A stretch of DNA of 64,000 nt from positions 22,542 through 86,541 of IMG/VR virus record IMGVR_UViG_3300033463_000022. One strand, written 5' to 3'. Below, in pieces: positions 4,397 through 55,326 of the stretch. Position numbers and translations under genes: made by a program. Under the pieces are notes generated by a model. The model was not told the origin of the DNA. It ran no database searches and saw only the letters and a list, made by a program, of their open reading frames with translations. Every line of letters starts with the position of its first letter. Within the stretch, counting starts at the first letter, position 1. The stretch is from a virus (taxonomy: Duplodnaviria; Heunggongvirae; Uroviricota; Caudoviricetes).

Positions 4397-5321
4397 TGAC
4401 TTGTGGCATCTATAAAATTGAAAACAACATAAATCATAAGATTTATGTTGGACAATCTCGAAATATAGAGCGTCGTTGGCAAAAACATAAAGCTGCAAAT
4501 GAAGATTACGCGCTCCATAAAGCATTCTAGAAGTACGGAGTTGAAAATTTCACATTTTCTATCCTAGAAGAATGTGATGTTGATATGCTTGATGAACGAG
4601 AAATCTATTGGATAGGATATTTTGACTCTTATCATCAAGGATATAATGAAACTAAAGGCGGTCAAGGTACTTCTGGGCTAACGATGAAGCTTACTGAAGA
4701 TTAGGTTTCTATAATAAGAGAACTTTTAAGAACAACCAACAGAACGAATGCTGATATTGCTGATGAATTTGGTGTTTCAGAGAATGCTATTAGCGGCATA
4801 AATACTGGATATTATTGGAAAAATAATTAGATAGATTACCCCATCAGAAAACAAGTTACTCGTCCTAAAAGCACTAAAAGCACTTATTGCTTACGATGTG
4901 GGCATGAATTAAAATCTCATAGCTCAACTTACTGCCCTGAATGTGCAGCAATCATGAGACGAAAGGTTGAACGCCCTTCCAAAGAAGAGCTTCTAAAAGA
5001 ACTTCAAGAATCTCAAGGTGCCTTTACAGCGATAGGAAAGAAATATGGAGTGACAGATAACACTATCAGAAAATGGTGTTCTGCATACGAACTACCAACA
5101 CACACATCAGATTATAAAATAGTAGTAAAAGAGAAGAAAGGTAAAAACTTTCCACCTGTTCGGGTTTAGCAGATAGATAAGAAAACCGGTGAAGTAATTC
5201 GAGAATTTGAATCTTTATCTCAGGCTCAAAGAGAAACTGGAATTGATCACATTATTCCCGCTAGCGATCCCAATAATACCACTCGAAAGACCGCAGGCGG
5301 ATATATATGGCGAAGAATTTA
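4397..5321 (+). CDS. GIY-YIG homing endonuclease (308 codons, 4 in-frame TAG read as Gln)
   Basis: N-terminal GIYKIEN...YVGQS, KAF-Q-KYGVENF across a TAG, C-terminal NUMOD-like ...QQIDKKTGEVIREFESLSQA; RBS AAAGGAGAAT. Confidence 0.8.
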
Positions 5322-5671
5322 ATTCTTCTCTATAGGGAATTAGTATAACAGCAGTGCGCTAGGCTCTGAACCTAGAGGAGGAGGAGCGTCACCTTCATTC
5401 CCTGCCATTAAGGAGAATATCTCGCCTCCGTATGCTAAAATACGCTACCAAGAGAAATAGAGCGGTAAGGATAAGCACGCTCAGCGAGTTTAACAATAGT
5501 AAGGAAAGCAGGACGGTCGGAAATCGTCTATAAGTCTTTTCTATATAGTGACCAGCGGGATGTAGATCTAGAAAATCATCATTTAAAGAGTCGCTCTAAG
5601 GGCGCAATGAGCGTTTGGGTGAAAACCACACCTCTGGCGTTTGGCGGTAACGTAGAACCGCCACTTCCCTC

Positions 5672-5748
5672 GCTCCAGTAGCCCAACTGGCAGAGGCATC
5701 GCACTTAAGATGCGAAAAGTGTGGGTTCGAATCCCACTTGGAGTACCA
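5672..5748 (+). tRNA. type I tRNA with anticodon UAA (Leu-decoding anticodon on a short-variable-arm body)
   Basis: Stem TCGCA/TGCGA with loop CTTAAGA, T-arm GTGGG-TTCGAAT-CCCAC, acceptor with terminal G.U pairs, A-CCA encoded. Confidence 0.5.
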
Positions 5749-5932
5749 TTAAGACGGTCACAGCAACAACTTTTCTGACAAGTATAAATCAGAGCCATTT
5801 TAACTTACCGTCTAGCTTTTATATAATGCCGCGAGCGGTAATGGTTTAGAAATTCTCCCTACAAATTCACAGTAGTCCTCGGGCGTGCCTGAAATGCCGA
5901 GCAATACGAGGGCCGCGGCTAAAATTTTATAT

Positions 5933-6019
5933 CGGGGAGCTGCTGAGTTGGTGATCAGCGGCGGGCCGTAACCCCGTTGCCCAACGGCTAAGTAGGTTCG
6001 AATCCTACCTCCCTGACCA
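5933..6019 (+). tRNA. tRNA-Tyr(GTA), type II
   Basis: Acceptor CGGGGAG/CTCCCTG, 5-bp D-stem GCTGA/TCAGC, anticodon loop CCGTAAC, variable-arm stem GCC/GGC, T-arm GTAGG-TTCGAAT-CCTAC, A-CCA encoded. Confidence 0.55.
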
Positions 6020-6200
6020 AAACGAAATACGACTATGCAGCTTCATATATTCATCATGATAACCTCCTTTCTTGAAACAATAGCAAGACAGACCTTGGTC
6101 GCTGCATACAAGGTAACTTGCGGCGGTCGCCCTAAAGGTCGGCGAGGCAGCTTTTTCTTCACTCCCCTGCCTCCGACCGGCGCCCGCACTTTCCCTCCCC

Positions 6201-6749: not shown

Positions 6750-7256
6750 ATGGCAGATACAGTAATTAAAACTACTTTCTAGTTTCGCCGTGGGCAAGCT
6801 GCCACTTGGGCAAGCAAAGACCCAGTATTAGAATATGGCGAACCGGGTTTTGAAAGTGATACTGGAAGATTAAAAATTGGCACCTCAGACAAAAAGCATT
6901 GGAGCCAACTTCCCTACTTTGGTGGCGGAGGTGTATGCCAAGGCTATTATTATAATGGTGCCTTTTATAGCGATGTAAGTCATACGCATGAAATGCCGGC
7001 TTCTGTTGAATATATATATATTGATATTTCAAATTCCAATATATATTTCTATAACGGAAGCGCATATGTCCAAATCATCAATGGCGGTGGTACAATCGTC
7101 CCCGCGACAGATACCACTCCTGGTGTGATGAAGCTCTATAACGCCGCCGGTGCTAATACCGACGGTACTATAACTCAAAAATTTATCACAGAAGAATTAA
7201 ACAAGAAAGTTGAGGCTTCTGTTGATAGTGCACATGAAACTTTAATCCTCGACTAA
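6750..7256 (+). CDS. tail-fibre protein with the conserved phage fibre N-terminal motif (168 aa, 1 TAG)
   Basis: MADTVIKTTF-Q-FRRGQAATWASKDPVLEYGEPGFESDTGRLKIG matches the widespread FQFRRG...NP.L..GEPG.E.DT fibre motif, with Q supplied by the TAG; RBS AAAGGAGGAAT. Confidence 0.75.
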
Positions 7257-8214: not shown

Positions 8215-9189
8215 ATGAAGTTATAGATACTAGTCCCTCAATATAAAGAGACGGATGAAATTATTAAGTCTTTGCTGGATTCGCTTTTGATCTAGCAAAA
8301 TGTTGACTTTAATGAATTTAGCGTTATAATTGTGAATGATGGAACGGATGTTTGTTTAAGTGATAAATTACTTACTTCTTATCCGTTTAAAATAGATTAC
8401 TATAAAGCTCCACATCGAGGAGTTTCTGCTACGCGTAATACCTGTCTTGACTATGCAACGGCTGATTATGTCATGTTTTGCGATGCCGATGATATGTTTT
8501 ATAATGCGTGCGGACTGTATTTAATTTTTAGAGAGATTAATTTAGGATTTGACACGCTTTCTTCTAAGTTTATAGAGGAAGGACATACTGATAGCGGTGA
8601 AGTCGTGTATATAAATCGAGAGAACGATAGCACTTTTGTTCATGGTAAGGTTCATCGGAGGTAGTATCTAATAGATAATAACATCAGATGGAATCCAGAA
8701 CTTACAATTCATGAAGATAGCTTCTTTAACTCTCAATGCCAACTGTATACTGATAAGCCAAAGTATTTGAATGAGTCCTTTTATCTTTGGAAGTGGAGAC
8801 CCGACTCCGTCTGTAGGCGCGATCCTGAGTATATATTAAAGACTTATCCCTGTTTAATAGATAGTATAGACTCTTTAGTTGATAAACTTGAGCGAGATGG
8901 GAAGCATGAGAGAGCTGTTTATTATACGGCTTATTTATTGTTCACCAGCTACTATACTATTAATAAACCCTAGTGGAGAGATAAAAAGAACCTTGACTAC
9001 TTAATGAAAATGGAGTTAAGGTGCTATTAGTTTTTTACCAAGCATGAGAGTAAATGGAAAGAATTTCCATTAAAATCGGCTATGGAATTGAGTTCTAAAT
9101 TGCGAGTTTAGGCTATTAATGAAGGTATGCTATTGGAATAGCTTACCTTAGATTAGTGGCTAAATAAACTTATTATGAACTATAAATAA
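8215..9189 (+). CDS. family-2 (GT-A) glycosyltransferase, 324 codons with 8 in-frame TAG
   Basis: ILVPQYKETDEI...VIIVNDGTDV and YVMFCDADDMFYN (DxD) motifs; single frame open from 8215 to TAA at 9189 only if TAG is sense. Confidence 0.7.
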
Positions 9190-9203: not shown

Positions 9204-10010
9204 ATGGCAGATATTTCTTTAATAAAGATTAATAAGACAAATATGACCTACGGTGTAAAAGATCTAGAAGCCAGATAGAGCATTGCTAATATAAAAGACG
9301 GAGTTGCCATTGATAGTTTTAGTGACGTTGAGAGTGCTTTAGCTGACAAAGTCGATGCAGAGTCTCTCGGCACGGCTGCCACTATGGAAGCAGGAGCGGC
9401 TAATGGAGTTGCCACCCTTGATAATGGTGGAAAAGTTCCTGCTAATCAGCTTCCATCTTATGTCGATGATGTTCTTGAATATGCGGACGAAGCAAGCTTC
9501 CCTGTAACAGGTGAGGTAGGAAAAATTTATGTAGATATAGCAACTGGAAAGACTTATCGTTGGAGCGGTTCTCAATATATCGAACTAAACACATATGCCG
9601 AAGCTACACAGAGCGCGTCTGGATTAATGAGTAGGAACGATAAGACAAAACTAGATGGTGTAGATGTAGGCGCGGAAGTCAATGTATAGAGCGACTGGAA
9701 TGTAACTGATAATGCATCTGACGCATATATTAAAAATAAGCCATCTATTGCTTAGATAAAGCAATATTCAGTGGTACTTGATAAAGACACTTGGGTAGCA
9801 GGACAGGATAGTTTTTCTTATACTCTATCTATCCCAACTTTAAAGTGCGGCAATGATGGAACCGTAGCTCCTATTATTACTCCAATAAGTAATATAGAAG
9901 AATATTCTACAATAGCTAGCGCAACTGCAACAGTTGGCACAGGAATTGTTTTTGTCGCGCCTGTAAAGCCAACAAAAGGCATTAGTATTATCGTTTAGGA
10001 CGTTGGCTAA
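9204..10010 (+). CDS. tail-fibre protein (268 codons, 4 TAG) with conserved fibre core domain
   Basis: GVATLDNGGKVPANQLPSYVDDVLEYADEASFPVTGEVGKIYVDIATGKTYRWSGSQYIEL and SASGLMSRNDKTKLDGV are canonical tail-fibre motifs. Confidence 0.8.
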
Positions 10011-10032: not shown

Positions 10033-12039
10033 ATGAGCGTAAATGCTATTTTAATGGATCAAGAAACTCTTATAGCGCCGGAATTTAGCACCAGTAACAG
10101 CTATGGGGTTGGAGATTATGTGAAATATGGAAACAGAATCTATAGATTCTTTGAAAGTAAGCCTGCTGGAGCTTGGAACGGAGGCTATGTAGAGGAAATC
10201 AGTGCTGTTGGATAGTATGTAACCGCTGGGCAGAAGAGCGGGACTACATTAGGAAGATACGCAACGGCAGAAGGATACGACACAACCGCTTCTGGCGATT
10301 ATTCTCATGCAGAAGGTGGTTCTACACACGCTTCTGGCGATTATTCTCATGCAGAAGGTGGTTCTACACACGCTACACGTATTTATTCTCACGCAGAAGG
10401 CGAATATACATATGCTAATGGTGAAGCTTCTCACGCAGAAGGCGAATCGACAAATGCTATGGAGGAAGCTTCTCATGCAGAAGGTAATCTAACAACAGCT
10501 TCTGGCGAAGCTTCTCATGCAGAGGGTTATATAACAACAGCATCTGGCGAAGCTTCTCATGCAGAAGGGAAAAATACAATAGCTGTAGGCGATAGCTCTC
10601 ACGTAGAAGGATTTATGGACTACGAAGGGGAAGGTTATTTATTTTTAACCTCAACTTCCTATAACAACAAAATTTATAAATTTAACCTTTCTCCAGAAAA
10701 CTATATCCATATTGGAACAGTGGTAAGTGTTAAGCCCAATGGTGATTGGGATAGCGCAGTTATTAAAGAAATAAATGAAGGTCAATTGACTATCACTTTA
10801 GATAAGACGTTAGGAACTTTATAGAACTAGCATGCTTTTATTGGTGCAGCTTATGGAGCATACTCTCATTCAGAAGGATATGAGACTTCGGCTGCTGGTG
10901 AAGCTTCTCATGCTGAGGGTAACGGTACAGCTGCTTTTAAGTACAATTCTCATGCAGAGGGCAACAATACAGAAGCTTCTGGCGAAGCCTCCCATGCAGA
11001 AGGCCGTTACACAACGGCTCGTGGTATTGGTTCTCATGCAGAAGGAGAGATGACAATAGCTTCTAGTTACGCTTCCCATGTAGAAGGCCGTAGTACAACT
11101 GCTTCTGGCGATTATTCTCATGCAGAAGGAGAGTATACAAAAGCATATGGAAGAGGTTCCCATGCCGAAGGAGGAGCTAGTCTCACAAATGGAAGTTTAA
11201 CTTCAACAGAGAATGATGAAGTATATTCTATCACATCAACTTCGGGTCTTAAGACTGGGGCGGCATTATCTTATAATGGTATCGCAACTGAGATTGTCTC
11301 AATAGATTCTACATCTTCTCCTAAGACAATTACATTAAGTAAAACGTTAGGAACATTATCAAACCAACAGGTTTATGTAGGTGCAGCTTCTGGCGATTGT
11401 TCCCATGCAGAAGGCGATGGGACAACTGCTTCTGGTTATTATTCTCACGCAGAAGGTCGTTACACAACTGCTTCTGGTTATGCTTCCCATGCGGAAGGTG
11501 ATAGTTCAGAAGCTGTCGGTCAAGCTTCTCACGCTGAAGGTGATAGTACAACCGCTTCCAAACCAGGCTCCCATGCGGAAGGTCATGGTACAACCGCTTC
11601 TGGCAACGCTTCCCATGCGGAAGGCTATATTACAACTGCTAAAGGCAATTATTCCCACGCAGAGGGTATTCATACAACCGCTTTCGGTGACTATTCCCAC
11701 GCAGAAGGTTTCAACACGGAGGCTGAAGGTAGTAACTCCCACGCAGAAGGAAATCGTACAACTGCTAATCATAAATCTCAACATGTATTTGGTGAGTGGA
11801 ACGTATTAGACACCAACGCCGCTGCCGCTACGGCCCGCGGAGACTACGTTGAAATTGTTGGTAACGGTTCTGGTTCTTCGGCTCGTTCTAATGCTCGAAC
11901 TCTTGACTGGTCTGGTAATGAGACCCTTGCTGGTACTTTAACCATCGGTGGCACTAACGGTATCACCCTTTCCATTGATTCTAGTGGTAATCTTAAAGTA
12001 ACAAAAGGTAATAAATCCGCCACCATTACTTTAAGTTAA
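10033..12039 (+). CDS. large tail-fibre or tail-spike protein with about 14-residue SHAEG (Hep/Hag-like) beta-repeats, 668 codons, 3 TAG
   Basis: Dozens of ...TTASG(D/E)YSHAEG... repeats; frame continuous across TAGs at 10213, 10822 and 10828. Confidence 0.75.
10289..10372 (+). repeat. perfect 42-bp tandem duplication inside the SHAEG-repeat fibre gene
   Basis: CTTCTGGCGATTATTCTCATGCAGAAGGTGGTTCTACACACG occurs twice back to back. Confidence 0.8.
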
Positions 12040-12108: not shown

Positions 12109-13704
12109 ATGGCAGATATTTCTAAAATTAAAATACCAGGCACAAATGATGCTTATAATATAAAAGATGCTGCCGCAAGAGAAGTTCTTTATCCTGTATA
12201 GCTCCCCGTCATCACCAAGCAGCCAGTCGATACTGCTAATTCTTCTGGGTATACAGTAACATTTTCAGTTAGTGCGACCGGGATTGGTCCGCTATCTTAT
12301 CAATGGGAGGTGAAAGCTCCGACAAATGACTGGCATAATTCAACTGCAAGCGGAGCAACAACCAACACTGTTTCTCCCACGCTTACTGCTAGCTCAGTAC
12401 GTGGGTATAAATGGCGATGCAAAATCTCGAATCAAAATGGATATGTGTACACAAACGAAGTAACCAATGCTCCAAAATATGATATTGCTAAACCATTTAA
12501 TAACGCTACAAATTTTCCGGTTGGGGCGTATTGTACGTATGCCGGCATTCTTTACCGCTGCACTACGGCGCATACTGGCGAGTGGGACGCCAGCCATTTT
12601 ACGGCAGTTGAAGTTGGAAACGACCTTACTGTCCTCAATTCCGCACAGCTTCCTGTTATCACTAAGCAGCCCGAAGATGTATATGGCTCGATTGGCGATA
12701 CCATATCATTTACCGTTGAAGCAACCGGGGTTGGAACGCTCACCTATTTGTGGCAGTACAAGTTGCGTGGCTCGTCTACTTGGTATAATGCCTCAGATCA
12801 AACATCAAGCACGGTTAGTTTTTCTATCGCTAATGCCAATATCGGCGAAAAAGTACGCTGCAAAATAACAAACGCCAACGGCACGATTTATTCTAACGAA
12901 GCAGCCGTTAACCCAGAATCTCGTTTTGCACTTCCCGTCATCACCAAGCAGCCCGAAGATGTGTACGTCGCGGTTGGCTCTCCGTATTCATTTAGTGTTG
13001 AAGCGACTGGGTTTGGTACACTCACCTATCAGTGGGAGTACCGATGGAGGAATCATGCGACATGGACGAACATTTCAGGAGCTACGAGCGCAACATATTC
13101 CGATTCGGGGTTGACTGATGCCGAGATTGGCGCGCAAGCTCGATGCAAAATAACCAATACAAATGGAACGGTTTATTCTAATGTAGCAACAATCAATCCA
13201 GAATTTAACTTTGCACCACAATTTGACCCCAATACCCCTGTTCCGTATGGTAGTTATGTCGTTTACAACACCGGCTTGTACCGCTGCACCAATCCGTCCG
13301 GGCATCCCGTGTCTGCGTGGGTAAATGCTGACTTCACGGCGGTCAGCGTGGGCGGGGATATCGTGAACTATCTTCCGACGCTGTTTGCGCCTGCGGGGTT
13401 CGGATTGGGCGGCAGAGGTTTTGTTTTAAATTCAAGCTTCAATTTTGATGCATCGGTGCCAGAGGAAGGAGCTATCACAAAGTCGGGGTTCTACAGTTGG
13501 AGCAGTTCGTCCGTTCCCTCTGGGTTACCGTCTTATTTTTCTAGTAAGAATGGTGTTGCGCTATTTATTGGAGCTTCTTCTGTTGGTTCTTTAATCATAG
13601 CAGCCGCTCTTGGAGGCAGCGGGGACAGCTATGTTCCCAGAATTGCTGTTCGTCAAAAATGGGCTCAAACTGCTTCAAGTTGGCACGAAATCACATTAAC
13701 TTAA
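12109..13704 (+). CDS. tail-fibre protein with three Ig-like repeats (531 codons, 1 TAG)
   Basis: N-terminus MADISKIKIPGTNDAYNIKDAAAR parallels MADISLIKINKT of the 9204 fibre; three LPVITKQPEDVY...ATG.GTLTYQW repeats. Confidence 0.7.
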
Positions 13705-13717: not shown

Positions 13718-14032
13718 ATGCAGAGAGTAATCTACGAAGTCTATGCCAAAGTCGTAGACTCTAACGGCACTTACAACACTTTAAACGGATACCCCAAAGT
13801 TTTTGACAGTAAGAACTACGGCGGTGACCAACTCAAGACACGCCAGCGCGCCGAGGGAGAGTTTCATGAATGCATCGGCGCTATGTGTAAAAATGATACC
13901 CGCCAGCTTTAGAGCGTTATTCTTATGAGTGCGGACGGATTTGTACTGGACAGCAAGTCCATTGGCAGGATTGCCGACCTGCCAGATCCAGAAACTGAAG
14001 AGGACGTAGAACCAACTGAGGATGGTGTTTAA
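13718..14032 (+). CDS. hypothetical protein (104 codons, 1 TAG)
   Basis: RBS AAAGGAGGAATCATT-ATG; frame continues through TAG at 13910 to TAA at 14030. Confidence 0.45.
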
Positions 14033-17466: not shown

Positions 17467-17565
17467 TACGCAAACTGCGGAGGGGCTTCAATGCCCCTCC
17501 AAAGTAAAAAATTTGCAATAATTAAAAAAATATTTTATAATATATTTGTAAGAATTAAGAAAGGC

Positions 17566-17684: not shown

Positions 17685-17758
17685 TCCGGCTTAGCATAAT
17701 AGTAGTGCAGGGGTCTCTAAAACCTCGGGACTCGGAGCGTAACCGAGAGCCGGTGCCA
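17685..17758 (+). tRNA. candidate amber-suppressor tRNA, anticodon CUA (reads UAG), with Gln-like identity elements
   Basis: Acceptor TCCGGCT/AGCCGGT (1:72 unpaired), D-arm GCAT-AATAGTA-GTGC, stem GGGGT/ACCTC with loop CTCTAAA, T-arm CTCGG-AGCGTAA-CCGAG, discriminator G73, CCA encoded; D and T loops noncanonical. Confidence 0.5.
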
Positions 17759-23538: not shown

Positions 23539-23549
23539 GAGTTAAAATA

Positions 23550-25055: not shown

Positions 25056-25061
25056 TAAGTA

Positions 25062-28964: not shown

Positions 28965-28968
28965 AGCT

Positions 28969-32588: not shown

Positions 32589-32672
32589 ATCAAATCCCTA
32601 ATAAAGTTGCTTTTTCTAAAAACTTATGTTATACTCAAATAAAAGAAATAATAAAGGAGACTTGAAACAAAA

Positions 32673-39786: not shown

Positions 39787-39798
39787 GGAGGGTGTAAT

Positions 39799-42862: not shown

Positions 42863-42888
42863 GGAGGGAGAGTAATCTCTCCCTCCAC

Positions 42889-42925
42889 TTGACAGAAATT
42901 TCAATATATTATATTATACTTATAA
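42889..42925 (+). promoter_or_regulatory. sigma70 consensus promoter TTGACA-N17-TATTAT
   Basis: Perfect -35 with 17-nt spacer, upstream of the ligase gene. Confidence 0.6.
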
Positions 42926-42992
42926 AGTAAATATATTATAATATATATTATTATTATTATTAAATCTATATTATTGTGAGGAGTCTCTGTAT

Positions 42993-44159
42993 ATGGGTTT
43001 CGATATAGCTAAAGTAGAGAAACTTTATCCCGGCGCAGGTCCTTTCATGCAGGAAGCGATGCTCATATGGAAGCTTCCCGCAGGAAAAGAAAATAAAATG
43101 AGCGAAGTTTGCTCTAATGGCGAATATTTTGCCGAAGAGAAGATTGACGGTGCGTGGTATCAATTCACCAAAGGAACCGGAGGTCAAGAATATCTCTTCG
43201 GTCGCACTACCTCACGCGTAACAGGTCTTATGACAGAAAAGGGACAGAATGTTCCCCACATTCTTTCTGCTCTTAATTGTTTGCCTAACGGGACAGCTTT
43301 GATCGGTGAGGTATATTTCGATGGAGGCACAGCGAGAGATACTGTTACTATTACGGGATGTCTTCCGCAAGAAGCAGTTCGTCGTCAGAATAATCCAAAA
43401 GGAAAAGGTTTAATTAAATATTACGTTCATGATATTATATTCTATGATGGCGAAAATTTAATGGGAACTGGTGCTTTTGATAGATACGCTATCCTCCAAG
43501 CCATCTGGCAGAAGTATGAGTTATCTAAATTTCCTTTCCTACGTCTTGCTACTATTGTTGAAACAGGTATTGAAGAAGAGGTCTCTCGAATCCTCGCTGC
43601 GGGAGGAGAAGGCATGGTATTAAAGAAGAGAGATGCCGTCTATAGCCCAGGAAAGCGCCCTGCATGGAGTGCTATAAAGTTCAAGCAGATGGATTCAGAG
43701 GATCTCGTTTGTACTCGTACAATCGCACCTACAAAAGAATACACTGGTAAGGAACTTGATACATGGCAGTATTGGGGAAGAATGACATATATCTTCAATG
43801 AAACGACTAAAGAAGGGGTTCCTTGTGAAGTTATTTCCTGCTGTGGACCGACCGACGACAGTGATGAATGGTATCCAATAACTAAACCCTATGCTCTTAA
43901 ATGGCCCTCTGCTATTGGTATCGGCGCATATGACGACAATGGCGAGCTAAAAGAAATTGGTACTATTTCGTCTGGTCTTACTGACGCTGATAAACAAGCA
44001 ATGGCTGATAATCCAGATGCTTTTATTGGCAAAGTTATGCATTGTTACGGCATGTCAAGAGATCGAAAAGAGCAAACATTTAGACACTTCTCCTTTGGTG
44101 GTTGGAGAGATGACAAAGATGCTAAAGATTGCAAACTAAGCGAGATCTTTGGCAGCTAA
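42993..44159 (+). CDS. ATP-dependent DNA ligase
   Basis: Adenylation motif EEKIDGAWYQF (KxDG) and OB domain. Confidence 0.8.
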   Translation: MGFDIAKVEKLYPGAGPFMQEAMLIWKLPAGKENKMSEVCSNGEYFAEEKIDGAWYQFTKGTGGQEYLFGRTTSRVTGLMTEKGQNVPHILSALNCLPNGTALIGEVYFDGGTARDTVTITGCLPQEAVRRQNNPKGKGLIKYYVHDIIFYDGENLMGTGAFDRYAILQAIWQKYELSKFPFLRLATIVETGIEEEVSRILAAGGEGMVLKKRDAVYSPGKRPAWSAIKFKQMDSEDLVCTRTIAPTKEYTGKELDTWQYWGRMTYIFNETTKEGVPCEVISCCGPTDDSDEWYPITKPYALKWPSAIGIGAYDDNGELKEIGTISSGLTDADKQAMADNPDAFIGKVMHCYGMSRDRKEQTFRHFSFGGWRDDKDAKDCKLSEIFGS

Positions 44160-44773: not shown

Positions 44774-45733
44774 ATGTTTTACGGTTTAATTATCGAAGGC
44801 ATCTGTCTACTTGCTCTTTTTATTCTGTACTTGCGGGCGCGAGGTCAAGCGCGGCATACAGTCTAGCGTAACGACGCCATAGAGCAAGAAAACTAGCAAT
44901 TGGCTAATACAAATGACTAGCTACGTATTGAGTAGATGGCTCTTAATGAGTAGCGCAATGCTTCAGAGAAGCACTTAGAGTCATTAAAAACTTAGGTGTA
45001 GGCATAGGGCAACATTTTATAGAGCTACACTTTAACCACCCAATAGCTTGAAAAAGACGCCAAAGAGCGGGCTGAGCAGAGCTATTAGGCGGCGGCCGCA
45101 AGCCTAGCACAAAAGTATGGTTAGCAAGAAGCTGAATTAGAAACAACTTATTAGCAACACTCATAGTAGTTATTATCCCGTATTAAAGAAGAAGAAAATA
45201 AGCTAAAAGATTTAGAAGATAAATAGCTTGCTTATATTAAAGCAAAACAACGAGAAGAAGAAATTGCTGCTTAGCGAGATTATTATCGACTAGTTCTTGA
45301 AGATATAGATTGTGAAGAGATAAAGCTTCTTCGTAATTTATAGGTACAATTCTCAAGGAAAGAAGCCATCGATAAGCTTATATGGGAGAGTTACTACAAA
45401 GCAGCTTACGACCTCTTGATGACGCATTTGTTCTAGAGTTCTGATAAATTATGCGGCATCTATAAAATCACTAATCTTGAAAACGGTTAGGCGTATATTG
45501 GGCAGTCTGTTGATATAAAAGAGCGGTTTAGATAGCATATCAAATCTGCTCTAACAAGCGGCCCTACAACCAATAAGCTATATCAATAGATGAAGAAATA
45601 CTAGCCCGAAAATTTCACTTTTGAAATACTGGAATCGGTTTCGCGAGATAAATTGAATGAACGAGAATAGTACTGGATAGACTTTTATAAAACAAAAGAC
45701 TATGGAATGAATGGGACAAAAGGTGGGTCATGA
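44774..45733 (+). CDS. TAG-saturated ORF: TM helix plus Gln-rich coiled coil fused to a C-terminal GIY-YIG nuclease domain (319 codons, about 25 in-frame TAG)
   Basis: Frame free of TAA/TGA for 319 codons in AT-rich DNA while carrying about 25 TAG; C-terminal LCGIYKITNLENG-Q-AYIGQSVDIKERFR-Q-HIK...NEREQYWIDFYKT is a GIY-YIG core. Confidence 0.55.
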
Positions 45734-47242: not shown

Positions 47243-48199
47243 ATGAAGAAGAATATGTATAACTCTTGCCACATTGAAGGCTATCTCTATGAGCACAACC
47301 TTGAGCTCAAGACTACCGGCGAGAAGTCTAAGAACCCTGGCACTGAATTTATCACTGGGTCGATTGGCATCGCTACCGATGATGATATGATGAATGTCGT
47401 GCAGGTACATTTTACCTATGTAACTGCCGTTACCTCTAAGGGTAAGCCTAATAACACCTTTAATACTCTTCAGGCGATTATTGACGAGAAGCTTCCAAGC
47501 GTCATGGGCTCCGGCAAGGAGAATGCCGCTCGTCTCCGCGTTGACTCTGCTATTGCTTTGAACGAGTGGTATGACAGTCGTACCGAGGGCAATCCTCTTA
47601 TCTCCGTTAAGCGTAACGAGGGCGGTTTTGTCCATCAGATGACCATGGCAGAGCAGCTTAATGAAGATCCTCATGCTCGTGCCACCTTTGATTGCGATAT
47701 CCTTCTCACAAAGGCAACTCGTGTTGAAGCTAACCCCGAGCGCAATATCCCCGAGAAGGTCGTTCTTAAGGGTTACATCTTCGATTTCCGTAAGAGCATT
47801 ATGCCTGTTGAGTTCTCTGTGACCAAGCCTGGCGCTATGAATTACTTTGAGGGTCTTGACCTCTCTAGTAAGAATCCTCTCTTTACCCGTATCAAAGGCG
47901 AGCAGATCTCTCAGACCATTGAGCGCAAGATTGAGGAAGAGTCTGCGTTTGGTGACGTCAACGTTCGCACTGTAAAGAGTTCTCAGCGTGACTTTGTGGT
48001 TACCTGGGCCGCTAAGGAGCCTTATGAGTGGGATACTGAAGATACCCTTCTTGGTTCCGAAGTTGAGAAAGCTCTTGCTGATCGTGAGGTTTACCTTGCT
48101 GATGTGAAGAAGCGCCAGGATGAATATCTTGCCTCTAAGGGTAATGCTATTGCAGATGCCCCTGCTACCACTCCTAAAAAGGGAACTTATGACTTCTAA
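47243..48199 (+). CDS. putative ssDNA-binding or recombination-associated protein (318 aa)
   Basis: Position between regulator and RecA-like ATPase; no firm motif. Confidence 0.35.
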   Translation: MKKNMYNSCHIEGYLYEHNLELKTTGEKSKNPGTEFITGSIGIATDDDMMNVVQVHFTYVTAVTSKGKPNNTFNTLQAIIDEKLPSVMGSGKENAARLRVDSAIALNEWYDSRTEGNPLISVKRNEGGFVHQMTMAEQLNEDPHARATFDCDILLTKATRVEANPERNIPEKVVLKGYIFDFRKSIMPVEFSVTKPGAMNYFEGLDLSSKNPLFTRIKGEQISQTIERKIEEESAFGDVNVRTVKSSQRDFVVTWAAKEPYEWDTEDTLLGSEVEKALADREVYLADVKKRQDEYLASKGNAIADAPATTPKKGTYDF

Positions 48200-48233
48200 G
48201 GGGAAACCCTTAGAAGTCTATAGGAGGTAACAT

Positions 48234-49217
48234 ATGGCTATTGATCTTTTAGCAATAGAACCTCATAAGGTTAGTACTGATCTCTCGGGGTATATTACCT
48301 ACCTCTATGGAGCTGCTAAGGTCGGTAAAACAACTCTTTGTAGTAAATTTCCTGGCACATTGATCCTGGCTTTTGAGCGTGGTTATAACGCCCTGCCTGG
48401 CGTTATGGTTCAAGACATTACTCGTTGGAGCGAATTCCGAGAAGTTATTCGTGAACTCAAGAAGCCAGAGGTTAAAGAGAAGTTTTCAACTATCGTAGTT
48501 GACACTGTTGATGTTGCTGGTTCTCTCTGCGATAAGTATATCTGTAATCAGCTTGGCATTGATACCCTTGGTGAGGGTGGATGGTCGGTGAACGGTTGGG
48601 CAGCATATAAGAAAGAGCTTGAAGACTGCTTCCGCACTATTACTCAGATGGGCTATGCCTTGGTGTGCATTAGCCATGACCAAGATAAGACATTCAAGCG
48701 CAAAGACGGCACCGAATATAACCAAGTTGTTCCTACTGCACAGAAGAGCTTGAACAATATCATTCGTGATATGGCTGACCTTTATCTTTACGCAGCAATA
48801 GACGAGAGCACCAAAGAGCGTAAACTCATTGTTCGTTCTCTTGATAATACTGTTGACTGCGGCAGCCGCTTTAAGTATATGGCTAACGAGATTCCTCTCG
48901 ACTACAACGCTCTTGTAAAGGCGCTGAATGACGCCATTGATGAAGAAGCTAAGGAACACGACAATCAGTTTGTTACTAACGAGAAGATAAAGCCTCTTGA
49001 GGCTACTCCAAAGCAGGACTTCAACTCTATGAAGGATGAATTTGGCGAGCTAGTTGGCAAGGTCATGCAATCCAATCCAGCTAACGCCGCAAGCATCACG
49101 GCCATCGTTGACAAGTATCTCGGTAAAGGCAAGAAGGTTGGAGATTGCAATCCTGCTCAAAGTGAACAGCTCGAGCTGATACTAGTCGAGCTTCGCGACC
49201 TCGCAAACAATAACTAA
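48234..49217 (+). CDS. RecA-family ATPase (Sak4/RadA-like)
   Basis: Walker A GYITYLYGAAKVGKTTL and Walker B IVVDTVD. Confidence 0.65.
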   Translation: MAIDLLAIEPHKVSTDLSGYITYLYGAAKVGKTTLCSKFPGTLILAFERGYNALPGVMVQDITRWSEFREVIRELKKPEVKEKFSTIVVDTVDVAGSLCDKYICNQLGIDTLGEGGWSVNGWAAYKKELEDCFRTITQMGYALVCISHDQDKTFKRKDGTEYNQVVPTAQKSLNNIIRDMADLYLYAAIDESTKERKLIVRSLDNTVDCGSRFKYMANEIPLDYNALVKALNDAIDEEAKEHDNQFVTNEKIKPLEATPKQDFNSMKDEFGELVGKVMQSNPANAASITAIVDKYLGKGKKVGDCNPAQSEQLELILVELRDLANNN

Positions 49218-49299
49218 ATACTCTACAAAGGGAGGGCTTGCCAGCACGAGCCTTCCCTTGACTTTTTTTTTATTATACGTTATAATATAAAAGGAAGGA

Positions 49300-49833
49300 G
49301 TGAACAGCTTGGCAAAACAACCGAAAGTTAAATGTCCCATATGCGGGGAACAATTCTATAGGGAAGATACTCCTTTTATCAAAATAAAGACACGTTATTA
49401 CCATACTTCTTGCTACGAAGCAGTAGAGGCTGCGAAGACAGAGGAAGAAAAAGAGCATGAGCGTTTGATTGAATATATCAAACAATTATTTAATGTAAAT
49501 ATATTAACTGTAAAGATAAATAAACAAATAAAAGACTATATAGAAAAAGGTTACTCTTACAAAGGAATTAGAAAAACTTTACAATATTGGTTTGAAATTA
49601 AGGGTAATTCTATTGAGAAAGCGAATGGTGGCATTGGAATAGTACCGTACACCTATGAGCAGGCGCTTACATATTGGAGAGGAATTTGGGAAGCTCAGCA
49701 GCGCAATCAACAGACAGGTGTAGCCGAGATTACTATCCCAGTTAGAGAAATCCGTATCGCTCCTCCAGAAAGGAAGCCCATGAAAATCACGCGCAAATTA
49801 TTTACCTTTTTAGAAGAGGATGGTGAGGATTAG
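49300..49833 (+). CDS. Zn-finger protein, possible helicase loader (177 aa)
   Basis: CPICG...YHTSCYE; immediately upstream of dnaB-like gene. Confidence 0.4.
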   Translation: MNSLAKQPKVKCPICGEQFYREDTPFIKIKTRYYHTSCYEAVEAAKTEEEKEHERLIEYIKQLFNVNILTVKINKQIKDYIEKGYSYKGIRKTLQYWFEIKGNSIEKANGGIGIVPYTYEQALTYWRGIWEAQQRNQQTGVAEITIPVREIRIAPPERKPMKITRKLFTFLEEDGED

Positions 49834-51374
49834 TGAATAGTTATAATGATCCTGCCGCAATCACTCAGGTTATAGGCTGTGTATTCAACAACCCCAGCTT
49901 ATTGGATGAAACAGATAAATACACTATTTCTGATGATGACTTCCCCGAAGAGTTTCATAGAATTGTCTTTGGATCTATATATAATATTCATGCTACCCAA
50001 AGCGAAGTTACAATAGATGCCATAATTGATTATCTTGCCAATAGGCCAAAGTATGAAGCAGTATTCAATGTAAATAAAGGTATTGAATATCTTGCAGAAG
50101 CAAGTAGGTATGCTAAAGAAAATACCTTTAATTATTACTACGGTCGTATGAAGAAGTTTACTCTACTTCGTATGTATAATAAGTACGGTGTTGACGTTTC
50201 TTGGTTGTACTCTCCCTTGACTCTTGATACTCAACTTCGTCAGCAACAGGAAGATTGGTTAGATGCTACAAGCCTTGTAGATATAGCTAATAAAGTAGAT
50301 AGCAAAATTGAAGAGATAAAGTCAAAATATGTTGACGATGAAATAGATGAAGGTATGCAGGCAGGCGAAGGTATTGATAATTTGCTTGAAGAACTGCAAA
50401 AACATCCCGAAGTTGGTATTCCTCTTTATGGTCCGCTTATAAACACTGTAACAAGAGGAGCAAGATTAAGAAAGTTTTACTTGCGGTCCGCGGCCACTGG
50501 CGTCGGTAAGACAAGGTCTATGGTCGCTGATGCCTGGAACTTTGCTGCTACAGAGATATATAGCGAGCAGTTCGGAATGTGGATTAAAAACGGGCCGTCA
50601 CAGCCTACTCTCTTCATCGTAACAGAGCAGGATATGGGAGAGTTCCAGACCATGTCTCTTGCTTTTCTATCTGGAGTTGATGAAGGTCATATCCTTGATA
50701 ATAGATATGAAGAAGGCGAATGGGATAGAATCCTTAAAGCCAAAGAAATTATCAAGAACAGTTGCTTGTGGGTTGAGCAGTTGCCAGATTTCTCTATTCA
50801 AGACGTCGAAGGAAAGATAAAGAAACATATAAGAGATCATGATGTAAAGTATGTATTCTTTGATTATCTGCACACTTCGATGAAAATTCTTGAAGAAGTT
50901 AGCCGACGTTCCGGTGGGGTTAAGTTGAGAGAAGATAATGTCCTGTTTATGCTTTCAACCCACTTGAAAGACTTGGCTAACCAATATGGAGTTTTTATTA
51001 TGTCAGCAACACAATTGAATGCCGACTATCAAGATAGTGAAACGCCAGACCAAAACCTGCTGCGCGGAGCGAAGAGTATCGCAGATAGAATTGACGTTGG
51101 TATGATTCTATTGAGCGTGACAGATTCTGACTTGAAGAAGATAGAACCTATCATGGAGCTTCATCCAGAGTTCTCTTCTCCAATACTTAAAATTTCTGTT
51201 TATAAAAACAGAAGAGGCGCATATAGAGGATGCTATTTATTCTGTAGAGGTAATCTTGGAACTTGCAGAATAGAACCGATGTTTATGACCGATTGGCGAC
51301 ATCAGCTTATGTCGATTGAAGATATTAAAATATTTGTAGAAGATGACCTTCCTCCATGGGAAGATCAAAAATAA
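49833..51374 (+). CDS. dnaB: DnaB-family replicative helicase
   Basis: Walker A AATGVGKTRSMVADAW plus N-terminal DnaB domain; TAG-free. Confidence 0.8.
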   Translation: MNSYNDPAAITQVIGCVFNNPSLLDETDKYTISDDDFPEEFHRIVFGSIYNIHATQSEVTIDAIIDYLANRPKYEAVFNVNKGIEYLAEASRYAKENTFNYYYGRMKKFTLLRMYNKYGVDVSWLYSPLTLDTQLRQQQEDWLDATSLVDIANKVDSKIEEIKSKYVDDEIDEGMQAGEGIDNLLEELQKHPEVGIPLYGPLINTVTRGARLRKFYLRSAATGVGKTRSMVADAWNFAATEIYSEQFGMWIKNGPSQPTLFIVTEQDMGEFQTMSLAFLSGVDEGHILDNRYEEGEWDRILKAKEIIKNSCLWVEQLPDFSIQDVEGKIKKHIRDHDVKYVFFDYLHTSMKILEEVSRRSGGVKLREDNVLFMLSTHLKDLANQYGVFIMSATQLNADYQDSETPDQNLLRGAKSIADRIDVGMILLSVTDSDLKKIEPIMELHPEFSSPILKISVYKNRRGAYRGCYLFCRGNLGTCRIEPMFMTDWRHQLMSIEDIKIFVEDDLPPWEDQK

Positions 51375-51607
51375 AAAGGAGATTTTTTATTATGAAGCAC
51401 GCAGGAATTGAATATCAGATGACTAAGAAAATGTTTGATAGTCTTCTAAAAACGCGTTCAGAATCTGAAAAGAGTATGAACCCCTACGCCTTTGTTATGA
51501 AGGTTATTAATGAACAATTCGGTATCAAGGGGCAAGTAACCCACGTAACATTTTACGAATAATACCGCTAAGTAGCGGTCATTATTGTATTAAGAAAGGT
51601 AGATATA

Positions 51608-52708
51608 ATGAGTCGCTACTTTGATAAAGATAAGCTAAAAGAAGCTCTTGAGCTTGGGCAGATCTACGATCTGCTTGAGCTCTGGGGCGGTGAGCCAGAA
51701 GAATTCGAAGGCGGACTAGTTTCTAGAACCATTTGCCACAACGTTCCAGGCGAGGGATCACGAAAACTGTATTATTATGAAAATACTCGCCTATTTCATT
51801 GCTTTACTGGTTGTATTGAACCTTCATTTGATATTTTTGAATTAGCTGCAAAAGTTGCAAAGATACAAAAAGGGGCAACTTGGGAACTTTATGACGCGAT
51901 GTGCTTTATCGCTGACTACTTTGGCTTCGAAGGAGAAGAGCAAGAGGAAAAGAAGATAGAGCTTGCGGATTGGAAGGTTTTTAGTCGCCATAGGTATGGT
52001 GAAGTAAAGCTACCAAGTAAGGTAACTCTTCCAGAGTATAATCCAGTGATTCTTACTCGTTTTTCTTATCCTAGAATATCAAGCTGGGAAAAAGAAGGTA
52101 TAGCGCCAGAAGTTGTGAAACGAAACGTAATAGGCTATTATGCAGGAGGCGAGCAGATCACTATTCCTCATTTTGACGAAGATGGTAGGCTTATAGGAAT
52201 TAGAGGGAGATTTTTGTCAGAGGAAAGCGCTGATAGATACGGAAAATATCGTCCTCTATATGTCAATAAAACACTCTATAATCATCCACTAAGCATGAAT
52301 TTATACAATCTCAACCACTCGCGTCCGCAGATAGCCAAGAGCGGAATAGCTTTAGTTTTTGAAAGTGAAAAGGCATGTCTACAATATCAGAGTTATTATG
52401 GCGGAGATAATGATATCTCCGTAGCTGTGTGCGGAAGCTCGGTTAGTAGCTACCAAATGCATCTTTTAAAGGAAAGTGGAGCGAGAGAAATAGTGTATTG
52501 CTTTGACCGTGACTTTGAAGAGATAGGCGATGACAAATTCAATAGATTAAAAACAAAGATAACTCACTTATATAATAAGTATAGCAATTCTTTAAAGATT
52601 TCTATTGTATTTGATAAGAATATGATTACTGGACTTCATTCTTCTCCTATTGATGAAGGCAAAGAAAAATTTGAGCAACTATTAAATGAAAGGATTATGT
52701 CACTATGA
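51608..52708 (+). CDS. dnaG: DnaG-type DNA primase
   Basis: Zn-ribbon CHNVPGEGS...FHCFTGC and Toprim LVFESEKACLQYQ...VYCFDRD. Confidence 0.75.
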   Translation: MSRYFDKDKLKEALELGQIYDLLELWGGEPEEFEGGLVSRTICHNVPGEGSRKLYYYENTRLFHCFTGCIEPSFDIFELAAKVAKIQKGATWELYDAMCFIADYFGFEGEEQEEKKIELADWKVFSRHRYGEVKLPSKVTLPEYNPVILTRFSYPRISSWEKEGIAPEVVKRNVIGYYAGGEQITIPHFDEDGRLIGIRGRFLSEESADRYGKYRPLYVNKTLYNHPLSMNLYNLNHSRPQIAKSGIALVFESEKACLQYQSYYGGDNDISVAVCGSSVSSYQMHLLKESGAREIVYCFDRDFEEIGDDKFNRLKTKITHLYNKYSNSLKISIVFDKNMITGLHSSPIDEGKEKFEQLLNERIMSL

Positions 52709-52971
52709 ATCTTGTACCTGCAATTAAAGAGCTTGAATCAGAAATTAGAAAAATGCGTTATGAGTTCGAGCGGAAGGTTAAACCCTATGAAGAGTCTATT
52801 GCTCAACTTAGAAAGTTAAATGATGCTTGTGAATACTGTAATGGTGCGGGTAAAGTATTGCGTTCTAGAGCCTGCGCCGAAGATGATCCCCCAGATGCCA
52901 ATGACCCTAGAGACTGGCTTGTATGTGATCATTGCCGTGGTACGGGAAAATGCAAGAAAAAGGAGAGCTGA
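52705..52971 (+). CDS. hypothetical CxxC protein (88 aa)
   Basis: Overlapping start; CEYCNG...CDHCRGTGKC. Confidence 0.4.
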   Translation: MNLVPAIKELESEIRKMRYEFERKVKPYEESIAQLRKLNDACEYCNGAGKVLRSRACAEDDPPDANDPRDWLVCDHCRGTGKCKKKES

Positions 52972-53010
52972 TATAATGTAGTTTAATAATAAGTAAAGGA
53001 TTTGATTTAA

Positions 53011-54282
53011 TTGGACTATACACTTATAAACCCCATAAACCCCAAAATATCCCCTATTGAATAGGTGCTTGTTAATCGAGGGTTTAAACTAGAAGATATC
53101 CCTCATTATCTTCATGTAACGAAAGAGGACAATTTATCTCCGCGACTTTTGAATAATATTGATAGAGCTGTCTCTCTTTTAGGTAAACATATAATGGATG
53201 ATAATTCTCATATCCATATATAGGTAGATAGTGACTGCGATGGTTATACCAGTGCAGCTTGTTTGCTAGATTATATTTACCTAGCTTTTCCAACCGCTAT
53301 ATCAAAGTTCTCCTATTCCTTCCATGATGATAAAACTCACGGCATTGATACAAAAAACATACCAAGTGACACCACATTAGTAATAGCACCTGATGCTTCT
53401 AGTAATGAATATGATACTCATAAAGCTCTTTCAGAAAAAGGCATTGATGTATTGGTAATAGACCACCACCAAGCCGATAGGATCTCTGAGTACGCCTGTG
53501 TTGTGAATAATCAGCTATGTGACTACCCCAATAAGGCATTAAGTGGCGTAGGTGTGGTATATAAAGTTTGTCAGCGCTTCGACGAACTTATGAATACTGA
53601 CTATGCAAACCAACTAGTAGATTTAGTCATGCTGGGGCTCACGGGAGATATGATGGACTTGCGATCTCTTGAGACTAAATATCTCGTAAATCAAGGTATC
53701 GCGCATCTTAGAAACCCGTTTATTAAGGGCATGGCGGAGAAGAATGAACATTCGCTCGGTTCGCAAATTACACCCATTGGTGTTGCTTTCTATATTGTAC
53801 CATATGTTAATGCTGTAACAAGAGTAGGGACACAAGAAGAGAAGTAGCTGCTTTTTAAAAGTATGCTAAACTGGGAAGCTTTTAATATTGTACCCTCTAC
53901 TAAGAAAGGCTGTAAAGGGCAGACAGAAACTATCGTAACACAAGCTGTTCGTACTTGCCAAAATATCAAGAACCGTCAAACAAAAGTACAGGAAGCCGCG
54001 GTAGAAGATCTTGAAGAGCTGATTGCGGCCGCCGGGTTACTGGAGCATAAAGTCTTAATCTTCCAGCTCGATGACTCATTCTCTATTACGCCAGAACTTC
54101 GAGGTCTGATAGCGAATAAGTTCATGGCTAAATATTGTAGACCAGTACTTATGTTGTCACTCACAGAATACGAAGGTAAGCCCGCTTTAATGGGGTCTGC
54201 ACGAGGTTATGAGAAATCAAAACTCTTGGATTTCCGCAAATTCTGTAGGGAATCTGGTCTGGTGTTCTTGGCTGAGGGTTAG
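53011..54282 (+). CDS. RecJ-like DHH/DHHA1 single-strand exonuclease (423 codons, TTG start, 3 TAG)
   Basis: DHH motifs HIHI-Q-VDSDCDGYTSAA and VLVIDHHQ; frame joins three listed ORF fragments across TAGs at 53062, 53221 and 53848; RBS AAAGGA. Confidence 0.65.
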
Positions 54283-54477
54283 CTTTAGTGTGGCCCTAAA
54301 ACTTTTTTCCGTCTTATCAACGGGGTCGCTAATTAAATGGCCAATTCTGGACATTCTTGATTAGTTGGCTAACGAGAAAACCTAAATATAATAGAGGATA
54401 TTATACATGGTAATCTCGTGGGAAGAATTATTCTTTATATGACGTCCTCTTAATTTAGAATTAAGGAGACATAAAGT

Positions 54478-55326
54478 ATGTTAAAAAGCATCTATAAAAT
54501 TACCAATACCCTAAATAACAAATGCTACATCGGTCAAACAGATGACGTAAAACGTAGATTTACTGAGCATAAAGCTCTAGGGTATGGTCGAGAAAATTCC
54601 ATTTTATATCGCGCTATCAAAAAATACGGTCTTGAGAATTTTACATTTGAAGTAATTGAAGAGAATATTGAAAATTATAACGAAAGAGAAAAATATTGGA
54701 TTGCATATTATGATTCATATTAGAGTGGCTACAATATGACACCAGGTGGAGAAGAGCCTCCAGTGAAATATGGAGAAAATCATCCTCTTGCAACGCACTC
54801 AAAAGCCGAATCCGAGGAAGTAAAAAATCTGTTACTGGCAACTCAAATGACCGTAAAAGAAATCGCTCAAAAGATGGCATATAACGTTTCTTCTATCATA
54901 AGAATTAATAATGGAGCACTTTGGCATGATGATACACTCGATTATCCGCTTAGAAAAGAATTAAGTAAAAAATTCAACGAAGACCGTGCATTAAGAATAA
55001 TTGATGACTTGCTAAATACAAGTATGACCCAGAGAGAAATTGCCGTTAAATACGGAGTAGGACGCTCTACAGTAACAGCCATAAACAATGGTTAGAATAA
55101 TAGGCAAGATGATTTAGAGTATCCAATTCGAGATAAAGATAGAGATAAATAGTCAAAACATATTTTTATGATAGATAAAGACACTGACGAAATTCTTAAA
55201 GATTTTGTTAATGCCAAAGAAGCGGCTCGCTATCTTGGCGATGCCGGTATGGCAACTGCATTACAAACATGCGCAAGGGGGAATTCAAGAACTTCCCATG
55301 GATATAAATGGAGATATAAAGAATGA
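54478..55326 (+). CDS. GIY-YIG homing endonuclease (282 codons, 3 TAG)
   Basis: MLKSIYKITNTLNNKCYIGQTDD...KYWIAYYDSY-Q-SGYNMTPGG; C-terminal NUMOD-like repeats. Confidence 0.75.

Follow-up and report, generated by a model that had tools for sequence, protein, structure and literature searches.

A 64,000-nucleotide stretch of the IMG/VR virus record IMGVR_UViG_3300033463_000022 (positions 22,542 to 86,541; called the window here at its full length of 64 kb) very likely belongs to a large uncultured phage that decodes the amber codon UAG as glutamine in a subset of its genes (genetic code 15) and carries its own tRNA(CUA). A sequence-only reading of this DNA had proposed glutamine and genetic code 15, and both are supported by family alignments, by the codons of bacterial flagellin genes at one TAG site and by a predicted phage-encoded suppressor tRNA. 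The affected region, which it had placed at 4397-55326, matches our analysis in that the first TAG-bearing gene starts at 4396 and the last one ends at 55326, and the four motifs that it quoted are all present: EKMRA-TAG-ITGL (16429), TTF-TAG-FRRG (6780), KAF-TAG-KYGVENF (4528) and HIHI-TAG-VDSDCDG (53221).

In-frame TAG codons lie within coding sequences

A crude, home-made gene caller that uses codon bias and ribosome-binding sites called 79 in-frame TAGs, from which we discarded four in an open reading frame (ORF) lying over tRNA genes, one on the minus strand and two intronic ones (54280 and 54286). The 72 TAGs that were kept lie in 23 plus-strand ORFs, so that the earlier estimate of about 90 in about 20 intact genes was right about their existence and somewhat too high in number. 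The discarded ORF (14449-15024, with four TAGs) was dropped as a spurious gene because it overlaps tRNA-Thr and tRNA-Gly. With TAA and TGA as the sole stops, several plus-strand frames turn into long ORFs interrupted by TAG alone; ORF 44753-45733 (gene 44774-45733), for instance, holds 24 TAGs and not a single TAA or TGA across 326 codons. A codon-bias model trained on TAG-free genes gave the same frame a coding score before and after the TAGs of the main candidates, and the Pfam domains GIY-YIG, glycosyltransferase 2, Flagellin_N and DHH extend across TAGs. When 2608 proteins of related contigs were searched against the window by tblastn, their high-scoring segment pairs (HSPs) spanned 57 distinct TAGs, 52 of them genic, and crossed just nine TGA and twelve TAA codons, each of which lies at a gene junction or in a single off-frame HSP. 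Among single genes, the GIY-YIG gene at 4396-5322 shows codon bias unbroken over its TAGs, three of which are spanned by HSPs, and a paralog has Q at AF-Q-KYG, while the N-terminal part of the PhoH-like protein is lost under code 11.

As the sequence-only reading had anticipated, coding density rises from 0.797 (93 genes) under code 11 to 0.874 (82 genes) under code 15, with 0.790 (83 genes) under code 4 as a control. This gain of 7.7 points comes with fewer and longer genes; it was measured with the home-made caller on 64 kb of DNA in which TAG-free replication genes abound. Borges et al. require the density to rise by more than 5% in contigs of 100 kb or longer and by more than 10% in those of 5-100 kb (bioRxiv 10.1101/2021.08.26.457843). 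We reject recoding of TGA, given that code 4 brings no gain and that, apart from gene borders and a single off-frame match, no HSP passes through TGA. Raw ORF statistics (long ORFs with at least two in-frame copies of each stop codon, and shuffled stop identities) did not set TAG apart from TGA or TAA; these counts are uninformative because read-through into neighboring genes inflates all three codons alike, and we therefore used homology and codon bias instead.

It is extremely unlikely that the TAGs are true stops in pseudogenes or decaying selfish elements, or artifacts of sequencing or assembly. Homing endonuclease genes do often decay, the single TAG of the flagellin gene is one C-to-T step away from CAG, and the C-terminal part of the glycosyltransferase combines weak codon bias with five TAGs, but decay would yield TAA, TGA and frameshifts too, and only TAG interrupts these frames. 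In dozens of contigs of different metagenomic origin, TAG-rich orthologs also keep their length and sequence; the residue with which TAG columns alternate is specifically Gln, and a cognate suppressor tRNA is encoded. Gene 44774-45733 illustrates this with syntenic full-length orthologs (in L001, L022 and other related loci) that contain 1-17 TAGs and alignment columns such as Q 23/TAG 6.

TAG behaves as a glutamine codon

With TAG translated as X, we aligned 17 families of genes taken from contigs of related phages. Gln accounts for 31% of the residues that stand opposite TAG, an enrichment of 3.15 bits above background, and the Jensen-Shannon divergence of the TAG substitution profile is 0.012 to Gln, with Glu as next best at 0.186. 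The alignment of TAG with Gln that the sequence-only reading had expected in homologs is found statistically and not at every site. The RecJ family alone, with 70 alignment columns that contain X, repeats the Gln result, and near-invariant Gln columns alternate with TAG in this family (Q 64/TAG 7, Q 68/TAG 3, Q 51/TAG 14 and Q 40/TAG 26); TAGs 53062 and 53221 of the window stand opposite Q in 52/70 and 40/71 family sequences, respectively, with TAG in most of the rest. At the scorable TAGs of the window, Gln is the modal residue of homologs in 28% of cases (9/32), compared with 33% of the CAA/CAG positions of the same genes. The claim that every TAG restores a conserved residue is therefore wrong, with other TAGs facing conserved R, G or E. 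By BLOSUM62, the best candidate at the window's TAG positions is Q (1.33), followed by E (0.98).

The flagellin TAG 16429 faces Gln in solved flagellin structures of the PDB. In the 80 closest bacterial flagellin genes, the same site holds CAG 80 times and CAA once (81 motif matches), mostly in an identical SEKMRAQITGL. The glycosyltransferase has Q as modal residue at three of its eight TAG positions (65/75, 73/75 and 36/75 relatives), with E, R, S or variable residues elsewhere. That TAG behaves evolutionarily as a Gln codon is well supported by these alignments.

A sense codon with another meaning is very unlikely, be it Glu (charged by a non-discriminating glutamyl-tRNA synthetase, GluRS, and left unamidated), Lys, Tyr, Trp, Ser, Leu or pyrrolysine. 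By both the divergence and the BLOSUM measure Glu comes second, many Firmicutes form Gln-tRNA via Glu-tRNA, and the discriminator base G73 and weak 1:72 pair of the suppressor tRNA also occur in the tRNA-Trp of relatives. The substitution profile is nevertheless about fifteenfold nearer to that of Gln than to that of Glu and invariant-Q columns hold TAG, to which come the CAG or CAA codons of bacterial flagellins at the TAG site and the apparent paralogy of tRNA(CUA) with a tRNA-Gln(CUG).

A predicted suppressor tRNA and its relatives

The predicted suppressor, whose anticodon CUA reads UAG, has a U1/U72 mismatch, G73, an encoded CCA and the non-canonical T-loop AGCGTAA. The tRNA-Gln(CUG) of the window has A1-U72, G73 and the T-loop AGCGTCA; in an alignment, the two molecules share an unusual D-arm and the non-canonical type of T-loop, while their stems differ. 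Because of the shared D-arm and T-loop, we regard the suppressor as a paralog of the phage tRNA-Gln with an anticodon changed from CUG to CUA, and tRNA-Gln(CUG) is likely its parent or paralog. Two relatives (L148 and L085) have CUA tRNAs with the same U1/U72 and G73. ARAGORN labels tRNA(CUA) as "Pyl", a name given only for the anticodon. Pyrrolysine tRNA has a 6-bp anticodon stem, a 3-nt variable loop and one base between the acceptor and D stems. By contrast, tRNA(CUA) folds as a normal cloverleaf in which the anticodon stem has 5 bp, the variable loop 4 nt and the gap from acceptor to D stem 2 nt, and for this architecture and the Gln signal in homologs we reject pyrrolysine decoding; no pyl genes (pylS, pylBCD) were found among the window ORFs scanned and annotated. 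The suppressor opens a tRNA cluster (suppressor-Lys-Lys-Cys) that is bracketed by a promoter-like site upstream and a terminator-like hairpin at 18068-18086, both of them pattern matches.

In E. coli supE, a weak chromosomal suppressor mutation, UAG is read as Gln by a tRNA-Gln whose anticodon is CUA and which competes with release factor 1 (RF1). The tRNA(CUA) of the window would likewise be a tRNA-Gln derivative with CUA, but unlike supE it is built into the phage genome, and its suppression would have to be efficient because one gene has 24 TAGs.

Several other tRNAs of the window are unusual. An 86-nt tRNA at 4283-4368 combines a long variable arm, a Ser-type D-arm (GACCGAGTGGTTGAAGGT), G73 and an A1/C72 mismatch with the Gln anticodon UUG and would insert Ser at CAA/CAG if charged by seryl-tRNA synthetase (SerRS). 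Exact and degenerate searches of IMG/VR for the anticodon arm of the suppressor and for this long-arm UUG tRNA found none, and the D-arm plus anticodon pattern of the latter had no match there either. A tRNA-like sequence at 2651-2720 (Rfam 40.9 bits; anticodon loop CUUCAAA, anticodon UCA) would read UGA; it is similar to the TAG suppressor in its D-arm, four of its acceptor-stem pairs are non-standard, and the window has no sign of TGA recoding. The tRNA at 4045-4118 (33.8% GC) has an 8-nt anticodon loop, for which ARAGORN gives the anticodon "gttt" (Asn or Lys), and thus the shape of a frameshift suppressor. Directly 5' of the TAG suppressor, positions 17595-17660 hold an apparent tRNA 3' half (GTAGGTTCAACTCCTACTTCCGCCA) followed by a 5' half (GCGGCAGAATAGCTCAATGGATAGAGCG), left uncalled by both tRNA finders. 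A non-canonical T-loop without the usual TTC is common to tRNA-Gln(CUG), tRNA-Thr(UGU) at 14616-14690 and the CUA suppressor (AGCGTCA, AGCATCA and AGCGTAA), and at its default threshold ARAGORN missed the first two of these.

Uneven use of TAG among genes and at gene ends

TAG makes up about 12% of Gln-type codons overall, though very unevenly between genes. Its share is 0% in the polymerase (0 TAG versus 46 CAA/CAG), both helicases, the primase, both topoisomerase subunits and the ligase, 28-44% in two fiber genes, the RecJ-like gene and four of the five GIY-YIG genes, and 67% in the glycosyltransferase and in gene 44774-45733, the most TAG-biased gene of the clade. The pattern of recoded phages, with avoidance of TAG in replication genes and its use in fiber and glycosyltransferase genes, is thus found here, at a share of 30-67% in the larger fiber genes and the glycosyltransferase and with the RecJ-like gene as an exception.

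This distribution also bears on the idea that UAG means Gln in the host already and that the phage merely matches it, which we consider very unlikely. The host assignment is tentative and no anti-RF1 function was seen in the window, but the phage has its own suppressor tRNA and related contigs span 0-31% TAG among Gln codons, and the lack of TAG in replication genes would be pointless unless UAG were a stop at some stage. Standard-code tblastn aligned the nearest bacterial flagellin genes, from Oscillospiraceae and other Clostridia, end to end, with CAG at the TAG site. To our knowledge, no bacterium with UAG reassigned to Gln has been found.

TAG is enriched near gene ends, with 6/74 TAGs within the last four codons of an ORF compared to 8/548 CAA/CAG (Fisher p = 0.003). 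The sequence-only reading had TAA and TGA as the only codons at gene ends, which is true by construction and overlooks these six TAGs (23536, 26442, 33435, 44430, 49831 and 9996), each of which lies 0-3 codons ahead of TAA or TGA. Five of the six are the only TAG of their gene (the nucleotidyltransferase, the RNA ligase, 33192-33443, 44220-44444 and 49309-49836), and in 49309-49836 the TAG is the last codon and followed at once by TGA. The near-terminal TAGs are thus probably present or former terminators with close back-up stops. C-terminal alignments of 49309-49836, the nucleotidyltransferase and the RNA ligase are too variable to tell a last sense codon from a stop.

The RecJ-like gene is split by a probable group I intron

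In relatives, the RecJ-like protein is uninterrupted and 583-590 amino acids long, whereas the gene of the window breaks after ...LAEG (54279) and resumes with HPNAFG (55449). Removal of the insert restores the frame (GAG GGT + CAC CCT) and yields AEG-HPNAFG as in relatives. Of the TAGs that the sequence-only reading had counted for RecJ, the one in the HIHI motif is indeed in the gene, and two others (54280 and 54286) lie within the insert and are no part of the RecJ coding sequence. The insert has the borders of a group I intron, with T at 54279 as the end of the 5' exon and G at 55448 as its own last base, and it houses a GIY-YIG endonuclease gene. Two distant relatives (L035 and L036) have a homologous insert at the same site with conserved non-coding flanks and compensatory changes in stems, and the insert is likely a structured RNA because of these features. 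A search of 54200-55700 against Rfam gave no intron model match at E <= 1, and a group I core was not recognized. By its borders and contents, the RecJ insert is probably a group I intron with a homing endonuclease.

A possible translational gate

We envisage that a host glutaminyl-tRNA synthetase (GlnRS), or GluRS together with an amidotransferase, would load tRNA(CUA) and that the charged tRNA would out-compete RF1 at UAG. Replication, nucleotide-metabolism and RNA-repair genes have no internal TAG and should therefore be translatable in an unmodified host, while the tail fibers, the glycosyltransferase, the RecJ-like exonuclease and the five GIY-YIG nucleases would need the suppressor. TAG would thus work as a gate in translation, holding these proteins back while the suppressor tRNA builds up. 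The terminal TAGs of otherwise TAG-free genes would probably be terminators early in infection, or have been so formerly.

Several points weigh against decoding as Gln or against such timing. The gene calls come from a home-made caller and not from Prodigal. TAGs of the glycosyltransferase stand opposite R conserved in 74/75 and E conserved in 66/75 relatives, one TAG of gene 44774-45733 is opposite G in 28/29 relatives, and the x position of HIHI-x-VDSDCDG is H or Y in solved RecJ structures and Q only within the phage family. In the predicted suppressor, T-loop and D-loop are both non-canonical, and no other tRNA of the window scores lower; the suppressor also stands behind a host-type promoter-like site, which is by itself no hint of late expression. 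Because RecJ as a replication and recombination gene carries TAGs, the division among genes is not simply one of early versus late. Among the window ORFs compared with Pfam or PHROGs, a set that leaves out many small ORFs, none was found to encode a release factor or another code-switch factor. For UAG translation, the amino acid inserted and its timing the evidence is indirect, and charging of the tRNA, competition with RF1 and timing follow the published model.

More tentatively, TAG might have two meanings within one infection and serve as a graded safety lock beyond a late-gene switch, an idea that we consider rather doubtful. Early on, TAG would end a handful of otherwise TAG-free genes with back-up TAA or TGA 0-3 codons on, and later it would be read as Gln. 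TAG density (up to 24 per gene) would then determine the amount of suppressor tRNA that must be present for the synthesis of potentially dangerous DNA nucleases, namely the conserved membrane-anchored GIY-YIG protein, the four other GIY-YIG endonucleases (one of them intronic) and the RecJ-like exonuclease. Still more speculatively, the odd Gln-related tRNAs (the CUA suppressor, the Ser-like long-arm UUG tRNA and the degenerate UCA one) might remodel the decoding of Gln codons.

Source of the window and related phages

The window has 42.6% GC with nearly all genes on the plus strand, and PHROG and Pfam annotation marks it as a phage replication and nucleotide-metabolism region that includes an RNA ligase with kinase and phosphatase neighbors and a PhoH-like protein, together with a block of tail-fiber-like genes and about 20 tRNA genes. 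Its source is probably a large uncultured phage of the gut or rumen with a flagellated Clostridia bacterium such as one of the Oscillospiraceae as host. Megablast of window positions 40000-60000 (20 kb) against GenBank phages gave no match. Among the 15 protein matches listed, the PolIII-alpha-like polymerase has about 40% identity to polymerases of Enterococcus phages and of SPbeta-like Bacillus phages. A 91-kb ENA contig (ERZ27257207 k141_6438599) shares one protein with the window and starts near window position 56.5 kb, which would put the genome above about 147 kb.

Related IMG/VR loci were collected in three sets, 80 via the RecJ-like protein, seven via the RNA ligase and 80 via the glycosyltransferase. 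In the replication module of the 80 RecJ-linked relatives (L001-L080), the TAG share of Gln-type codons ranges from 0 to 31%, with 0% in nine loci, so that the clade appears to mix standard-code and recoded genomes. The families preferentially recoded among these loci are RecJ and the membrane GIY-YIG gene.

Relation to known recoded phages

The phenomenon has already been described in gut phages, and the window is a further example of it and not a new phenomenon. TAG-recoded gut and rumen clades include phages with gemstone names (e.g., Agate), Lak and crAss-like phages, and recoding was proposed to delay late or dangerous products (Borges et al., bioRxiv 10.1101/2021.08.26.457843). The window resembles the phages of that study in that in-frame TAG aligns best with Gln, that a TAG suppressor tRNA appears to be phage-encoded, that replication genes largely lack the recoded codon while structural genes use it, and that a strongly recoded homing endonuclease sits in the putative intron of an early gene. 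Both also have apparent occasional legitimate terminator use of the recoded codon, with C-terminal extensions, and standard-code next to recoded genomes within one clade. Unlike the TAG of the window, their intron-endonuclease example comes from TGA-recoded Agate phages, and some of their genomes have RF2 genes, none of which was found in the window.

A likeness to code-15 gut phages had been suggested by the sequence-only reading and is apt, though not one to Lak or crAss-like phages specifically, since the closest cultured relatives are phages of Firmicutes at 40% protein identity. The Lak megaphages of Devoto et al. 2019 reportedly recode TAG with the help of suppressor tRNAs and have a large set of tRNAs, both traits as in the window. 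They are said to have genomes of about 550 kb, Prevotella hosts and a much lower GC content; the window has 42.6% GC and a flagellin gene that points to Clostridia. For crAss-like phages, decoding of TAG as Gln was shown by metaproteomics (Peters et al., Nat Commun 2022, PMC9523058). The window, as judged from its sequence, would share with them the reading of TAG as Gln via a suppressor tRNA, whereas crAss-like phages have Bacteroidetes hosts, genomes of about 100 kb and other replication machinery, and the window polymerase is nearest to Enterococcus and SPbeta-like Bacillus phages at 40%. Babkin et al. 2023 (PMC10607447) describe phAss-1, of the proposed genus Phassvirus, with a genome of about 136 kb and like the window uncultured, from the gut, with TAG in many characteristic ORFs and with suppressor tRNA genes. 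It is absent from the megablast of positions 40000-60000 and from the 15 polymerase protein matches listed.

Our knowledge of the mechanism is unchanged by this finding. Standard-code annotation would split or truncate fibers, the glycosyltransferase, RecJ, flagellin and endonucleases both here and in dozens of IMG/VR relatives. Code-15 phages gain a lineage with probable Firmicutes hosts and genomes above about 147 kb, whose most heavily recoded genes are those of DNA nucleases and mobile endonucleases. Because relatives span 0-31% TAG among Gln codons, the clade should be a useful series in which to trace the genome-wide spread of a code change.

Features and neighboring genes of the window

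The features discussed above are collected in Table 1.

Table 1. Features of the window with their coordinates, strand, TAG codons and basis of assignment
Feature	Coordinates	Strand	TAG codons	Basis
GIY-YIG homing-endonuclease-like gene	4396..5322	+	4 (4528, 4702, 4828, 5167)	Pfam GIY-YIG across TAG
tRNA-Gln(CUG)	5334..5407	+		Rfam tRNA 43.9 bits; ARAGORN at lowered threshold
Tail-fiber-like protein, Mtd_N motif	6750..7256	+	1 (6780, TTF-TAG-FRRG)	
Family-2 glycosyltransferase	8215..9189	+	8 (67% of Gln-type codons)	Pfam; 75 relatives
Tail-fiber-like protein	9204..10010	+	4, one (9996) 3 codons ahead of TAA	Caller, codon bias, codon counts
Fiber protein, YadA-head-like SHAEG repeats	10033..12039	+	3	Pfam; HSPs across TAGs
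Ig-domain fiber-like protein	12109..13704	+	1 (12199)	
Small ORF	13718..14032	+	1 (13910), opposite Q in 2/2 relatives found	
Full-length flagellin	16267..17466	+	1 (16429), at conserved Gln of SEKMRAQITGL	Pfam Flagellin_N and Flagellin_C
Promoter-like site TTGCAA, 17-nt spacer, TATAAT	17513..17541	+		Consensus scan, pattern match only
Predicted suppressor tRNA, anticodon CUA (reads UAG)	17685..17758	+		ARAGORN; Rfam tRNA 40.8 bits
GIY-YIG endonuclease-like gene	18133..18795	+	3	Pfam scan; HSPs
Nucleotidyltransferase and RNA ligase	22735..26450	+	23536, 3 codons before TAA; 26442, 1 before TAA	
ORF without assigned function	32672..33151	+	3	Codon bias continuous over TAGs
PhoH-like protein	33412..34683	+	33487, in N-terminal part	PHROG profile coverage; HSP across TAG
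Topoisomerase II subunit genes and DNA ligase, broken only by GIY-YIG gene 39799-40485	37894..44159	+	TAG-free	PHROG
GIY-YIG endonuclease-like gene between two topoisomerase II subunit genes	39799..40485	+	3	HSPs
Predicted N-terminal membrane helix, coiled coil, C-terminal GIY-YIG	44774..45733	+	24	Pfam
Replication genes (Sak4-like, DnaB-like helicase, primase)	47243..52708	+	Sole TAG is last codon of 49309-49836	
RecJ/DHH-like exonuclease, exon 1	53011..54279	+	3 (53062, 53221, 53845)	Pfam DHH
Intervening sequence, 1169 nt, starts with TAG, ends with G	54280..55448	+		Relatives with uninterrupted gene
GIY-YIG endonuclease gene inside intervening sequence	54478..55326	+	3	Pfam; HSPs
RecJ-like exonuclease, exon 2 (HPNAFG...)	55449..55925	+	None	
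Dda-like helicase and PolIII-alpha-like DNA polymerase	57201..62618	+	TAG-free	Codon counts

The flagellin gene has a GC content of 0.53, above that of the window, and its product matches Oscillospiraceae flagellins in the N-terminal domain at up to about 90% identity. This similarity hints at a host among the Oscillospiraceae or other Clostridia and at capture of the gene. The window also has a gene for a flagellar cap protein with FliD_N and FliD_C domains (1213-2139). The accessory block at 25062-32482 is free of internal TAGs. It comprises the RNA ligase, an AAA_33 kinase and two metallophosphatases, which are likely an RNA-repair set, as well as a formate/nitrite-transporter-like gene (26434-27048), a xanthine/uracil permease gene (30243-31526) and a gene (31538-32482) that matches a PHROG family annotated as "lipoprotein".

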